Below, piece after piece: positions 27,065-59,782 of a stretch of 64,000 nt of DNA. The stretch is from Candidatus Bathyarchaeia archaeon (lineage in GTDB: Archaea > Thermoproteota > Bathyarchaeia > 40CM-2-53-6): NCBI GenBank assembly GCA_050013255.1, contig JBEKFP010000001.1, positions 1,343,938 through 1,407,937 of the forward strand, written 5' to 3'. Made by a program: the position numbers and the translations under genes. The notes beneath the pieces were generated by a model, which did not search any database, was not told the origin of the DNA, and was given only the letters and a program-made list of their open reading frames with translations. Every line of letters begins with the position of its first letter. Within the stretch, counting starts at the first letter, position 1.

Positions 27065-27283
27065 GGCCCGGGATTAGATCCATGAGGTGACTAACGGGTA
27101 GAACTTTGCTATCATCAATCAACCGCCTCATTCTATATGCTACGGCGCAGACGAAGCTAGTTTGAAAGTCAGCCTCAATCAATTCCGGTAGCCTATCTAG
27201 CTGTAGTTCGCCCCCGAACCTTGGTACGGGATTCGCTAATCGAGAGTTAACCCTAAATTTCCGATTCCTCTGTGCTCGAATGA

Positions 27284-27380
27284 AGGTACCGGGGGAGCTG
27301 GGAAAATCCCGGCTGAGAGGACGGCTCACGTCGCCGTCGACCCCGTGAACCTGATCCGGGTAATGCCGGCGTAGGGAGTG
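27284..27380 (+). ncRNA. TPP riboswitch aptamer
   Basis: GGGGAGC...GGCTGAGAG...GACCCCGTGAACCTGATCCGGGTAATGCCGGCGTAGGGAG matches the TPP consensus; lies upstream of thiT. Confidence 0.95.
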
Positions 27381-27484
27381 TGCTAAGTGAACGCTAGTCG
27401 TGCAACTTTCCGCAATCCATCTAGAGCGTTCCATATCGCTGTCCTCGGTAACCTTCAACCAAAACGTGGAGGTGAAATTGGACA

Positions 27485-34557: not shown

Positions 34558-34673
34558 GGGCCGGTAGTTCAGCCTGGTATGCCAAGTGTTCGCTGGGCCA
34601 AAGAACGTCCGGTTTGCAAGTTCTTCACCAAGCTTCCGGAAGGTCGCGGGTCCGAATCCCGCCCGGTCCACCA
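34558..34673 (+). tRNA. tRNA-Ala(UGC) with two BHB introns (21/22: 34581-34602; 37/38: 34619-34634), CCA encoded
   Basis: Acceptor GGGCCGG/CCGGTCC with G3:U70; anticodon TGC 34615-34617; cloverleaf restored after intron removal. Confidence 0.92.
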
Positions 34674-37029: not shown

Positions 37030-37144
37030 AGCCCGGTGGTGTAGTGGACAGTTCAAACCCGCAGAAGCATAGAGGGCTTTGGACCCTCCGACGGGAGTTC
37101 GAAAGGCATCAAGAAAATGTCCGAACCTCTCCCCCGGGCTACCA
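37030..37144 (+). tRNA. tRNA-Gln(UUG) with two non-canonical BHB introns (D-loop: 37050-37064; 59/60: 37104-37127), CCA encoded
   Basis: Acceptor AGCCCGG/CCGGGCT; anticodon stem GAGGG/CCCTC; anticodon TTG 37079-37081. Confidence 0.92.
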
Positions 37145-43501: not shown

Positions 43502-43677
43502 GGGGCGGTGGTCCAGGCCACGAGTCTACCCATCGTGGGGACAACTTGGTCTAAGATAGCGAAAACCAGTTCGCCTTGAAACCGGTCTCGGGACCAAAAA
43601 TACTGAACAGCGAGTACACCGGTGATCGAGGGTTCAAAATGGCCGGGAAGGTCATGATATTCCCTCCCGCCCCACCA
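43502..43677 (+). tRNA. tRNA-Pro(CGG) with four BHB introns (15/16: 43517-43544; 25/26: 43558-43580; 37/38: 43593-43616; 59/60: 43639-43660), CCA encoded
   Basis: Spliced 79-nt product GGGGCGG TG GTCC AGCTTGGTCTA AGAT A CCGGT CTCGGGC ACCGG TGATC GAGGG TTCAAAT CCCTC CCGCCCC ACCA; TATA-like TTTAAG at 43470. Confidence 0.92.
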
Positions 43678-45287: not shown

Positions 45288-45437
45288 ATGGAACTTTCAG
45301 TTGGATGTCGATCGTTCGCATTATAATTGCGACAAACTCAGCAATTTCCCTGCTAAAGCACAGCTCAATTTTGCAGTCACGGTGAATAACAGTTTTGTCC
45401 TCGGCACATTTGAAACCAAAGAAAGGTATGTGGGTTC

Positions 45438-46208
45438 ATGAAACGACTCATCGCCATCTTGATACTGTTGATGCTCTCGGTTCCGATGGGGGTTAACGCT
45501 CTTCCTCCGCGGTATGCTATTCCCAAAGGCCAAGCCCTGATTTTGTCCTCTCTGAACGAAACAAATCCTATGGGTCAATACGGCAAGAATGCTGTCTGGT
45601 ACTTGACGCATGCAGGATACAACGTAACATACCTAACCGATGGCCAAGTGACCGTCGATTTACTCCTAACCCGGATGAAGAACTACAACGTCGTGATCTG
45701 GCGAACTGACAGCTTCACCTGGAAGCACGTCACCTACTGGTGGGTTGGAGAAAAAGTGAACGATGGAGTACAGGACGAATACCCAGCCGATTTCGCACAA
45801 GGCTGGCTAAATGCCAACACTGGTATTGTTGGAATAAGTTCGGAGTTCTTCACAAATCACCTCGGGCCAAAAACTCTGACCGGTGTCTCGCTACTGATGT
45901 TCCTCTCGAGTGATGGCAATGCGGTTGCACCCATGTTTGTTACAGCGGGAGCTTCGTCAGTAATTTACTGCAACGGGTCGATTTCCCTTGAATTTGGCTT
46001 AATAGATGATCTCTCTATCCAAATGGTTGCATACCTAACCCAAGGAGAGAGCGTCTACTCCGCCGTGTACGCTACAGTGTCTCCATTCAACCAGGGACAG
46101 CAACCGAAAGACCCCCTTGACAATACATATGCCCCACCATTCTGGTACATCGGCGACGGTTCGGTAATAATTGCTTCAAGCATCCGTGCAACTCCTCACA
46201 TATCCTGA
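45438..46208 (+). CDS. Hypothetical secreted protein
   Basis: Signal peptide followed by an alpha/beta domain. Confidence 0.65.
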   Translation: MKRLIAILILLMLSVPMGVNALPPRYAIPKGQALILSSLNETNPMGQYGKNAVWYLTHAGYNVTYLTDGQVTVDLLLTRMKNYNVVIWRTDSFTWKHVTYWWVGEKVNDGVQDEYPADFAQGWLNANTGIVGISSEFFTNHLGPKTLTGVSLLMFLSSDGNAVAPMFVTAGASSVIYCNGSISLEFGLIDDLSIQMVAYLTQGESVYSAVYATVSPFNQGQQPKDPLDNTYAPPFWYIGDGSVIIASSIRATPHIS

Positions 46209-46495
46209 ACAATCCGTCGCTTCACGCAGCCGGTAGGGTATAGCATATCTTTGCGGTGAATTCGAACAACCCTACGAACGGTTAGATTCTGCGCCTAGTA
46301 TGCCACAGAACTTCCGATGTTTCGCAAGTACTGCAATCATGCCATGATTTTGAGATTCGAGAGTTTCGATTTCCACAGGGATGTGCCGGTGGCACCCCCA
46401 ACTGCTCTCAATACACAGGAGCAAACGGTTCGAGGCGATAAGCTGCCGCCCGTTCGAATCAAGGTGTCTAGTGAAATCTGACTAAGTGCAGCTGT

Positions 46496-47158
46496 TTATC
46501 GAAGGCGATTCCCGCAACTGTCACAGAAGTTTGCAGCGGGATGGTTAGGAGCACCGCAGTAAGAACAGGCGATTGTTGCCCAGGGCGTTGACTGGGGATA
46601 TACTTCTTGCTGTCGATAGTACGCTTGCTGAGGAGGAGGTTGGGTGTAGGTTGGCTGAGTTTGCGGCATGTATGGTGGGCCTCCTGGCGCCGGGACCATT
46701 TGCCGGCCGAAGGCGATTCCTCCGGCACGTCCGAAGAAGGCTCGAACATTGCGAGTGCTCAAGTACACAAGTATGAGTAGGTACAGGATGATTGGTACTA
46801 GGTCTGCGATATTCTCCAGCGTCAATCCTCCAGAAACTAAACTTGACACCAGACTTAGCACTCCAAAGATGAGTCCAATGATTGCCCCTACTATGCTAAG
46901 GCCCCACGCCCATCCTTTCCCGGCCCAAAGGCCGTACGCTAGCGCGAACGAAAGAATTCCAAGGCCGAATGCGACAAAACCGAGCAACAGGAGCGCCGTG
47001 GCAAGGAAGCCTCCACCTACGAGGGCCGTAGACACAACATAGGCGAAGATAAGTAGAATTCCGAGCCCTATGTCTCCAATCCCGCTAATGACTTGCAGTA
47101 TTGTGAGGATTGTTACACCAATGGGTCTTCCGGGACGTGGCATGTAAGGTGTGTACAA
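46496..47158 (-). CDS. Membrane protein with C-terminal double zinc ribbon
   Basis: RPIGVTIL; four TM helices; CSYCG....ANFCDSCG. Confidence 0.75.
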   Translation of the reverse strand: MYTPYMPRPGRPIGVTILTILQVISGIGDIGLGILLIFAYVVSTALVGGGFLATALLLLGFVAFGLGILSFALAYGLWAGKGWAWGLSIVGAIIGLIFGVLSLVSSLVSGGLTLENIADLVPIILYLLILVYLSTRNVRAFFGRAGGIAFGRQMVPAPGGPPYMPQTQPTYTQPPPQQAYYRQQEVYPQSTPWATIACSYCGAPNHPAANFCDSCGNRLR

Positions 47159-47272
47159 TTAACTCAGCTAACCTGTTACTCTAGGTTAAGGGGATAATGA
47201 AACCTCCGGAACGGCATATTTCAGTCTTCGCAATGATCTGATTAGTTCGAATTGGTGGAAACGAATTATGGT

Positions 47273-47419
47273 TGGTAGCGGGGGGTGGATGTTCGGGCGC
47301 GTGGCCTTTCGAACCACCGCTTGAGGAGTCTTTCAACTCAATCTCAGGGTTTCTCGCCAGGATATGAGCCCACCGCACGGGAAGGTTCTGCGGGTTAAAC
47401 CTGGCTACCCCACCCCGCT
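47273..47419 (-). tRNA. Initiator tRNA-Met(CAU) with four BHB introns (29/30: 47387-47371; 37/38: 47362-47351; 47/48: 47340-47320; 59/60: 47307-47290), CCA encoded
   Basis: Spliced product AGCGGGG TG GGGT AGCCAGGTTTA ACCC G CAGGG CTCATAA CCCTG AGATC GGTGG TTCGAAT CCACC CCCCGCT ACCA; A1:U72 and three G:C pairs in the anticodon stem mark it as initiator. Confidence 0.92.
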
Positions 47420-47526
47420 AGTGAGAAATCAAAAAGACTTGCGTGCTTTTTGTGGGTTTTGGTTGCCCTGACGAAGGGGTTTTTCCAGATAAGTCCGACC
47501 ACGAAGCCAACAGTTGCAGCCCATAG

Positions 47527-47760
47527 ATGATAGTCTGCGAGCGATACGAAAGGAAAGGTCTTCTGAGAAAGTTGGATCGGGACTCGAAACGAAATCAGCT
47601 TCACCCACACTGCGTCCGGAAATTTCTTCAGCAAACTCATCGACTCAGGCGTCGACCGCGGCGTTGCCTACTTGATGCGCCACAGATTCGGGACAACACA
47701 CACTTACAGTTGGGAGAAGGCAGGATTCACGAGAAATACCTCATGGTTCTAACGGTCCAG
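47527..47760 (+). pseudogene. Tyrosine recombinase/integrase C-terminal fragment, frameshifted
   Basis: LHPHCVRKF (HxxR motif), then in a shifted frame FFSKLIDSGVDRGVAYLMRHRFG (LMGH-like box II). Confidence 0.65.
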
Positions 47761-47941
47761 GGAGAATCCACAGACACGATAAGCCGCCTCGTAAGTTGGG
47801 ACGACGATAAGCAATGACAGGAGAATATACTCCACTGTGCGAGGTAAGACAAGACTAATCCGCTTGAAGGAATATGCCAGCTTGTCCAACAGAGAAAGTC
47901 CTAATTGAAGAGACGTTGACATTCAGGCCGAGGAATCTCAT

Positions 47942-48298
47942 TTGTTAACCCCTGACGAAGTCTTCCGATTGCATCCAAAGATTCGATGGGCGGCACTGTC
48001 TACAGAATCTGAGTCTGTTGTTTTCTCCCAGATGCGGCTGGGCGTGAAGAGTCACACAGCCAACTCTGAGGATCGGGCATTCATGAAGTTAGGCCCACTC
48101 TTCATGACCGGCATGGCAGAACGGTTGACGCCGGAAGGCAAGGCGGGGAAGCTGGAATGCGTTATTGCATGTTTCGAGAAGGATTACGTCCTCGTGGCTA
48201 AAGTGGGGAACGGCCACTTAGCCATCTCAGTTGACAAAAGTGATGCACTGGCCGTATTCCAGGAGATTATTCCCCAGGTAATCAAACTAACTGCTTGA
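47942..48298 (+). CDS. Hypothetical protein, roadblock/profilin-like small domain
   Basis: HPKIRWAAL......V...MR.GV.S pattern typical of small TACK proteins; fold is inferred. Confidence 0.55.
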   Translation: MLTPDEVFRLHPKIRWAALSTESESVVFSQMRLGVKSHTANSEDRAFMKLGPLFMTGMAERLTPEGKAGKLECVIACFEKDYVLVAKVGNGHLAISVDKSDALAVFQEIIPQVIKLTA

Positions 48299-49475
48299 CT
48301 GGTTACCAAGGAAGGGAATCGAAAAGAAAAGGTTGCTTCCTTGCACGTGAGCCTATGGGGCTACATATTCTGGGACCTTGCTGCCTTTCACTGAGGCTTG
48401 AAACAAAGATACGGCGTTTTCCCCGTGAGTGGGAGCATATTGCCGGCATAAGGCTTCATGACAGCTCGACAGCCGGATGCGCTAAGATCGGTTCGCGACG
48501 ATTCATCGTTTATGCAACGAGATTCCAGGAGGCAATGACATGGTTGTAATATTACGGATCAAGAACTATGTTGCAAGCCCAGCGCAATTATTGGTGGCAT
48601 TTCTCCTGTGCAGTCTACTCGAGGCGATCTCCATTTTCTTTCTTCCATCCCGTTTCCGAATGCTGCCACGGAAATGTTCATGGAGATTAGCAGCTCTCGC
48701 AATCGGCTGAGCTTGCCACTGGTTTTGATGGTTAAGATTTTAGGTCTTAATAGGGTGAAACGCCGGTGAATCAACCACTTTACGTCACATATGAACAATA
48801 TTGAGTAGCATCATGCCCAACGCCTGAAAATGTGCTGAACAGGAAGTTTAAGGTAGGAAATTGGTTGCTGTACCATGAATAACTGAAAAAAATGCAGAAA
48901 ATTGGCCTGCAAATTCGCAAATACCCTAGGTTTTGCCGAAGCTAAAGGCTAGGCATCCCATAAGCGGAAGGCAAATATCCTCCTCACAGGCCTGTCTTCG
49001 TGTCCTTTCTGGCAATAGAATCAAGTGAGGTGAACAAAAACGGGAGTTGGCACTGGCGGACACGGCGGCGATTAATAATGATGCTCCAAAGTTCGGGACA
49101 GGTTCCACGTAGAAACTCCTGAGTTTTCGGAGTTTCAGTGGGTTAGGATAGACATGTCTCTGTCTATCTGGTGGTAGTGGTAACTATGTTTTTTACCAAA
49201 TTTCTAGTGGCACTGTGTAGAACCTTTTATCCCGCCCCGACGCGAACGGCTCTTCGGAGAAGAGATCAGTCGTGTGTGAACATTGTTCCGCCATGGAAAA
49301 AGTGCTGACCGATTTAGTCGGAGAGAAAGTCTCACGTGTCATAATGAAGAGAGTTGCAATGGAACTGCACGGGCAAGCAATAACGTCCTTCCTTCAAGTG
49401 CCAGCCCTCCATGTTGGCGTTGAACAAGTACCGGCCTTACGAAGCAGTACGTGCTACGAGTCTAGTTGAACAGAT

Positions 49476-59474: not shown

Positions 59475-59782
59475 GGGTTGTGCGTGTTGGCCGTAACCCA
59501 CCTTCTGTTTTAGGCGACATTCATCTAATCGGGATACCCGCGCCTCAGGCGGCTTTCACGGGCGCCTATTATCCCTTTCACAGCGTGTGTAGGCATTTCA
59601 CCCTTACCGCCAGCCTCCTCAACGCAAGCGCATCATAGTCCACGGCTAGCGGAGGTATTTTTCTGCGCCTTAACCCAACCTCTCGGCTGGCACCTCACAG
59701 TGCCACGCGTCCGCCATGTGGGTGGAGTTTCCTCAGGCCCATTACACACAGGGCCCGGAGTCGCTCACCAACTCGCCAACCC
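59475..59782 (-). ncRNA. rnpB: Archaeal RNase P RNA
   Basis: Minus strand has GAGGAAACTCCACCC and AACAGAAGGTGGGTTA (the two P4 strands); terminal GGGTTG/CAACCC helix. Confidence 0.93.

Follow-up and report, generated by a model that had tools for sequence, protein, structure and literature searches.

Can a stretch of 147 nucleotides in which standard finders see no tRNA be the initiator tRNA gene of its genome, and, if so, how would an intact tRNA be obtained from it? The question is posed by positions 47419 to 47273, read on the minus strand, of the window, by which the whole 64-kb stretch of DNA analyzed is meant here (contig 1:1343938-1407937 of a metagenome-assembled genome). ARAGORN reported no tRNA anywhere in these 64 kb, the unspliced initiator gene being missed, and Rfam returned nothing at the locus even at E = 10. 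Read as five exons and four introns, the same stretch encodes an initiator tRNA-Met(CAU), and we consider it highly probable that an uncultured Bathyarchaeia archaeon from soil or peat has here its functional initiator tRNA-Met gene, in a single copy.

Anatomy of the gene and its predicted spliced product

In the minus-strand reading, the gene starts with AGCGGGGTGGGGTAGCCAGG and ends with CCCCGCTACCA, its CCA being encoded (47275-47273). Exon 1 (47388-47419, on the minus strand, as are all the parts listed here) spans tRNA positions 1-29, i.e., the 5' acceptor strand AGCGGGG, a D arm with an 11-nt D loop, and C27 A28 G29, and is invariant in the alignment of relatives; it is followed by intron 1 (47371-47387; 17 nt at 29/30), exon 2 (47363-47370; positions 30-37, GGCTCATA, with the anticodon CAT), intron 2 (47351-47362; 12 nt at the canonical 37/38), exon 3 (47341-47350; positions 38-47, ACCCTGAGAT), intron 3 (47320-47340; 21 nt at 47/48, in the variable loop), exon 4 (47308-47319; positions 48-59, comprising C48, the T-stem 5' strand GGTGG, and TTCGAA), intron 4 (47290-47307; 18 nt at 59/60, in the T loop), and exon 5 (47273-47289; positions 60-76, comprising T60, CCACC, CCCCGCT, the discriminator A, and CCA).

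The in-silico removal of exactly these four introns leaves 79 nt, which ARAGORN recognizes as a tRNA-Met(cat) with a complete, standard cloverleaf, the CAU anticodon lying in a 7-nt loop, the variable loop reading AGAUC, the T arm reading GGTGG-TTCGAAT-CCACC, and the discriminator being A. Archaeal initiator tRNAs are marked by the pair A1:U72 and by G:C pairs at three positions in a row, 29-31/39-41, and the spliced product carries both marks (A1:U72 in AGCGGGG.../...CCCCGCT; G29-31:C39-41 in CAGGG/CCCTG), which supports its reading as an initiator, whereas the elongator Met gene of the same genome (contig 2:730137-730247) has neither. Downstream of the gene, a membrane protein of 220 aa that contains a zinc ribbon is encoded, the remaining neighboring ORFs had no Pfam match, none of the neighbors could be linked to the initiator gene, and two ORFs overlapping the gene belong to no family and were taken as spurious.

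Splice motifs and their conservation among relatives

Each intron was scored against the standard geometry, a central helix of 4 bp with a 3-nt bulge at either end, the two bulges lying on opposite strands and the cut falling after the second bulge base, and introns 1, 3, and 4 show this strict bulge-helix-bulge motif, with intron 2 showing a relaxed one. For intron 1, C24-C27 (CCGC) pairs with intron GCGG between the bulges AG|A and TG|G, the inner stem being 2 bp long and the outer helix weak (1 bp); for intron 3, U42-G45 (TGAG) pairs with CTCA between AU|U and AG|C, with an inner stem of five pairs (GAGU/ACUC plus a closing U.G) and, again, a weak outer helix (2 bp); for intron 4, U54-G57 (TTCG) pairs with CGAA between AA|A and CA|U, the inner stem being GGC/GCC and the 5-bp T stem itself serving as the outer helix. 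At intron 2, C32-A35 (CTCA) faces CGAG with three pairs and an A35.C mismatch, there is no inner stem, and the 5' cut lies inside a loop, which makes it a bulge-helix-loop motif. The motifs of introns 1, 3, and 4 are recovered both by the unconstrained minimum free energy (MFE) fold of the precursor (-57.4 kcal/mol, z = -2.06) and by the RNAalifold consensus fold, and a fold built by hand accommodates the four central helices together without any base being claimed by two of them (-39.2 kcal/mol); since the four helices are compatible within one fold, the structure demands no fixed order of splicing.

BLAST of the 147-mer against 40 relatives retrieved full-length orthologues from 12 other genomes of the same genus (87-97% identity), as well as orthologues with fewer introns from other genera and families, and an exact match to the 32-mer of exon 1 is found in 41 contigs of species-representative genomes, nearly all of them soil or peat metagenome-assembled genomes assigned to Bathyarchaeota or Bathyarchaeia. 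An alignment of the 14 distinct four-intron copies, from 13 genomes of the genus including that of the window, has 79 of 79 exon positions invariant versus 35 of 68 intron positions (Fisher p = 3.5e-14, the sequences not being independent of one another), a contrast far beyond chance. The invariant intron positions (6/17, 10/12, 11/21, and 8/18 for introns 1 to 4) are mainly those of the central-helix strands. The central helix is retained with four of four pairs in all 15 distinct variants of the 29/30 intron found among the relatives, and likewise in all 32 distinct 47/48 introns across the loci parsed. In these 32, the first four pairs of the inner stem are 98.4% paired while using 2-5 standard pair types per position; shuffling the partners gives a mean of 61.7%, the observed value being reached in 0 of 2000 shuffles, and 0 of 2000 is also the outcome for the 31 distinct 59/60 introns, with the very short inner stem of the 29/30 intron giving no covariation signal in the shuffle test. 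The splice motifs at 47/48 and 59/60 are thus kept by compensatory changes while their sequences drift.

The exact splice positions can be read from natural variants that lack single introns. Intron 3 is absent in two loci of the same genus (L014 and L015), where the junction reads GAGATCGG; intron 2 is absent in L016 and L019, where it reads CTCATAACCC; and intron 1 is absent in L017, L018, and L019. As these intron-less alleles give the predicted junctions at 29/30, 37/38, and 47/48, the positions are fixed, and variant intron ends (...GGAT|GG and ...AATG|TCC) exclude 28/29 and 58/59 as alternative placements. An earlier note, made from the letters of this DNA only, had named an initiator tRNA-Met with introns at precisely 29/30, 37/38, 47/48, and 59/60, and the spliced cloverleaf, the motifs, and the junctions of the relatives all bear this out; the span that it gave is exactly the gene with its encoded CCA, and its remark that the 29/30 intron splits the initiator-defining GGG is correct as well (G29 / G30 G31). 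It had further listed four helix pairs without naming a strand, all of which are present on the minus strand, CCGC/GCGG, TGAG/CTCA, and TTCG/CGAA being perfect, but CTCA/CGAG, with its three pairs and a mismatch, does not hold as a full helix.

The four-intron layout may not be universal in the genus, as BLAST detected no orthologue in 8 of 22 same-genus genomes (G003, G005, G008, G009, G010, G015, G016, and G020), one of which (G016) consists of 3 contigs with 96% completeness. Three sequence patterns run on G003, G005, G010, G015, and G016 found no initiator gene there, and three candidate places in the BLAST-negative genomes of the genus proved to be a coding region, a tRNA-Gln, and an unrelated stretch. 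The initiator gene may be unassembled in these eight genomes, or it may be organized differently.

Single-copy status, the tRNA set of the genome, and rival readings

The genome (2.46 Mb in 3 contigs, thus not closed; scored 100% complete with 8.55% contamination) holds no second initiator gene that could be found: blastn-short with the mature sequence against all 2.46 Mb gave none, and neither did an anchor scan for a T arm combined with a 7-bp acceptor and CCA, in which the sole other tRNA with A1:U72 has a UUG anticodon and is hence a tRNA-Gln. This fits the remark of the earlier note that the initiator tRNA is usually single-copy. Several partial matches were rejected along the way, namely a 16-nt copy of the 3' end of the gene (contig 3:86147-86162), which lies antisense inside a gamma-glutamyltranspeptidase gene and can be dismissed both as an att site and as a fragment of the gene, two 13-nt matches to the anticodon arm (contig 1:232252 and 1168137) lacking any tRNA context, and an ARAGORN "tRNA-Met" with a 955-nt intron (contig 1:544785), which is devoid of initiator features.

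From the anchor scan, about 40 tRNA genes emerged, which range from 78 to 229 nt with a median of 126.5 nt, one gene only being of uninterrupted length (78 nt), and the initiator gene is typical of its genome's tRNA genes in being interrupted; Rfam detected only 19 tRNAs genome-wide, 17 of which encode CCA. By the motif test applied, other class I tRNAs of the genome carry variable-loop introns with good motifs at 45/46, 47/48 being occupied in the initiator only. When each of the four introns was used as a blastn-short query within the genome, only chance-level matches were obtained (the best being 16 nt of intron 3 at contig 2:65848, without tRNA context), so no sign of recent intron copying was seen.

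Further interrupted or otherwise noteworthy RNA elements lie within the window. A tRNA-Gln(UUG) gene at 37030-37144 (plus strand, 115 nt) has the acceptor AGCCCGG/CCGGGCT with A1:U72, the loop CTTTGGA, an encoded CCA, and a 24-nt insert at 59/60; in its orthologue in G015, the 59/60 intron matches the T-arm/intron-4 region of the initiator gene at 80%, a likeness for which either a common constraint or homology of the introns may be responsible. Two other tRNA genes of the window are likewise interrupted, both on the plus strand with CCA encoded, and are found at 43502-43677 (176 nt, GGGGCGG.../...CCGCCCC) and 34558-34673 (116 nt, Rfam tRNA at 46.3 bits), and a match to the TPP riboswitch, above the Rfam threshold at 71 bits in this archaeal genome, is found at 27281-27395 (plus strand).

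That the locus might be a decayed relic, with the working initiator encoded elsewhere, is suggested by the silence of ARAGORN and Rfam and by an assembly left in three pieces, but we regard it as very improbable, as no exon position varies among 14 copies whose introns drift, the splice motifs are kept by compensatory changes, and a genome scored as complete offers no other initiator-like sequence, the only other long match being the 16 nt within the gamma-glutamyltranspeptidase gene. Such strong purifying selection among the relatives also upholds the view of the earlier note that this is no pseudogene. An even more remote prospect is that the likeness to an interrupted tRNA came about through a chimera or a false join: metagenomic assembly and the estimated contamination would allow for such artefacts of assembly or binning, but the five-exon layout, with introns particular to each lineage, is seen again in assemblies made independently by several projects (Danish, SPRUCE peat, Angelo soil, and others).

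A different matter is whether, in a gene that is duly spliced, intron 2 plays an active part. Its CCTGGC is complementary to GCCAGG of the D loop (47400-47405, minus strand), and in unconstrained folds (MFE, centroid, and alignment consensus alike) it pairs with the D loop instead of forming its own motif. This 6-bp pairing might supply the second helix that is missing at the 5' cut, or it might keep the precursor from its native fold for as long as intron 2 is in place, in which case maturation would be ordered or checked. Besides the recurrence of the pairing in all three folds, the idea draws on the lack of an inner stem in intron 2 and on its conservation, 10 of its 12 positions, including all five "loop" bases, being invariant in the 14 genus copies, unlike in introns 1, 3, and 4, the loop bases of which vary freely. 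Against it, a 6-nt complement within 147 nt has, by a rough estimate, about a 1-in-4 chance of occurring, the 37/38 introns of other families are unrelated to it and do have ordinary inner stems, and a minimal intron of 12 nt may be constrained by the enzyme alone; moreover, as CCTGGC and GCCAGG are both invariant, there is no covariation. A role of this kind for intron 2 seems unlikely on balance. Slightly less likely still is the broader proposition that 47/48 is an untabulated, initiator-specific position kept across the order, that the pairing of intron 2 with the D loop orders or checks precursor folding, and that the introns are functional rather than neutral.

Proposed maturation, spread within the order, and known counterparts

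With the locus read as a functional, spliced initiator gene, the enzymes of its proposed maturation are encoded in the genome. Two paralogues of the PF01974 endonuclease family are present, of 190 aa (alpha; contig 2:171513-172085) and 187 aa (contig 1:301907-302470). The former most resembles enzyme chains from A. pernix (3p1z_B), S. tokodaii, and P. aerophilum, and aligns to 3p1z_B through a GPGIDHAPFIV stretch, its catalytic residues having been read by eye, and the latter is divergent and lacks the catalytic His in that stretch. The predicted enzyme is of the two-subunit alpha/beta, broad-specificity crenarchaeal type, and alpha/beta endonucleases accept relaxed motifs and non-canonical sites (PMC4033280, PMC5829648). 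The RtcB ligase is encoded by one 1039-aa frame (contig 1:110968-113778, minus strand), the Pfam match of which is split, after about residue 60 of the profile, around a large insert that is probably an intein, and a full-length archaeal RNase P RNA (175 bits) lies within the window itself (59482-59776, minus strand).

A candidate promoter box, ACTTATCTGG (47485-47494, minus strand), is situated 66-75 nt upstream of the mature 5' end, a distance that would leave a leader of roughly 40 nt if the box is a TATA box. In 9 of the 16 genus copies examined (the loci listed, besides the window, being L006, L008, L010-L012, L014, L015, and L067), a box ACAAAYTTATCTAG precedes the initiator gene at a distance of 34-81 nt, and among the 40 tRNA genes of the genome it precedes that of the initiator alone. 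From these elements, we infer a transcription start, cleavages, ligations, and an order for them as follows: a precursor of about 150-190 nt would be transcribed, probably from the TTATCT-type box about 70 nt upstream; RNase P would cut off the 5' leader; the alpha/beta endonuclease would make eight cuts, each after the second base of a 3-nt bulge beside a 4-bp helix, releasing four introns of 17, 12, 21, and 18 nt from 29/30, 37/38, 47/48, and 59/60; and RtcB would join the five exons in four ligations into the 79-nt tRNA, for which CCA addition would be unneeded, the CCA being already in the gene. A look-up of RNA sequencing runs for positions 45400-49400 of the window returned no run containing this interval.

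Across 301 sampled Bathyarchaeia genomes, the pattern of the 47/48 intron was found in 62, a count that includes the genome of the window and a few probable chance or coding matches outside the order; a control with the reversed pattern gave one match. Of the 10 families in the order to which the window's genome belongs, 8 have the pattern (e.g., f1 with 27/43 genomes, f2 with 12/15, f5 with 4/4, and f9 with 4/7), and the intron is therefore old in the order; outside it, one family has the pattern in 3 of 6 genomes, and the few other matches look like chance or coding ones. Within this one order, the initiator tRNA has eight intron sites (4/5, the D loop, 22/23, 29/30, 37/38, 47/48, 59/60, and 71/72), and at least three different four-intron combinations exist: 29/30+37/38+47/48+59/60 in the window's gene, 4/5+22/23+37/38+59/60 in L020 and L023, and 4/5+22/23+37/38+47/48 in L028 and L030. 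The 4/5 intron of the latter four loci, which belong to sister families, is 16-22 nt long and lies about 20-40 nt upstream of GGGTGGGGTAGCC; as its central helix, GTAG/CTAC, reaches into the leader by two bases, this helix could form only as long as RNase P has not yet cut. The leader of L028 and L030 also contains a full copy of AGCGGGG. The 71/72 intron, of ~30 nt in the 3' acceptor strand with the helix CCCC/GGGG, is present in L040, L047, L050, L054, L056, L058, and L068, all of which have the 37/38 and 59/60 introns too and lack the one at 47/48. The same tRNA with eight intron sites thus offers a compact set of natural cases in which the gain and loss of introns can be studied.

How far is any of this new? 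Four endonuclease-type introns, a colinear gene, and a genome in which most tRNA genes are interrupted fit the known multi-intron type, for which the Thermoproteales, as portrayed in reviews of the work of Sugahara et al. (2007/2008) on Pyrobaculum calidifontis, P. islandicum, and Thermofilum pendens (PMC4033280, PMC4390854, PMC8450103), are among the closest counterparts. Several introns per gene and a heterotetramer-type alpha/beta endonuclease are shared with them; however, in the accounts given there, the Thermoproteales never exceed three introns in one gene, nor about 1.5 per gene over a whole genome, as against four in the present initiator gene and a median tRNA gene of 126 nt, and they are hyperthermophiles, whereas the host here belongs to a mesophilic soil or peat lineage of Bathyarchaeia. 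Three introns per tRNA gene is the maximum stated both in older reviews and in the tRNAscan-SE 2.0 paper (PMC4033280, PMC4390854, PMC8450103), and the four introns exceed it, yet they are no record: tRNAs with up to four introns were described in 2024 for the Asgard Atabeyarchaeia and Freyarchaeia (PMC11291895, Supp. Data 4, in which the initiator of Atabeyarchaeia-2 has three), and up to five are given for Asgard tRNAs in a 2026 preprint (10.64898/2026.10.13.758758), with 92-97% of the tRNA genes interrupted and many missed by standard finders (PMC11291895; preprint 10.64898/2026.10.13.758758). The Asgard archaea are, however, a different phylum, and 47/48 is among the four intron sites of the present Bathyarchaeia initiator.

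As for the position itself, a list of archaeal intron sites in PMC4090602 includes 29/30, 37/38, 45/46, and 59/60 and does not include 47/48, and a variable-loop tRNA intron of Thermofilum pendens goes back to Kjems et al. (1989), as cited in PMC3978253. Like that intron and those at 45/46, the present one is a bulge-helix-bulge intron inside a 5-nt variable loop, but its cut (U47|C48) falls two nucleotides further 3' than 45/46. Initiator genes dependent on processing at the other sites are on record as well, i.e., the permuted one of T. pendens, with its junction at 59/60 and a 37/38 intron, and the one of Nanoarchaeum equitans, split at 37/38 (PMC3218864). The present gene shares with these two its single-copy, essential nature, its dependence on endonuclease and ligase, and the sites 59/60 and 37/38, but it is colinear, being neither permuted nor split, and has two further introns. 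As multi-intron tRNA genes with these motifs are already known, the exact 47/48 position is possibly the sole point of novelty; our literature search found no report of tRNA introns in Bathyarchaeia.

Soil and peat Bathyarchaeia join the short list of archaea, comprising the Thermoproteales and some Asgard classes, with heavily interrupted tRNA genes. As standard finders miss the gene completely, annotations of these genomes will seem to lack an initiator tRNA. For the organism itself, the supply of a single essential initiator tRNA would depend on eight precise endonuclease cuts and four ligations.
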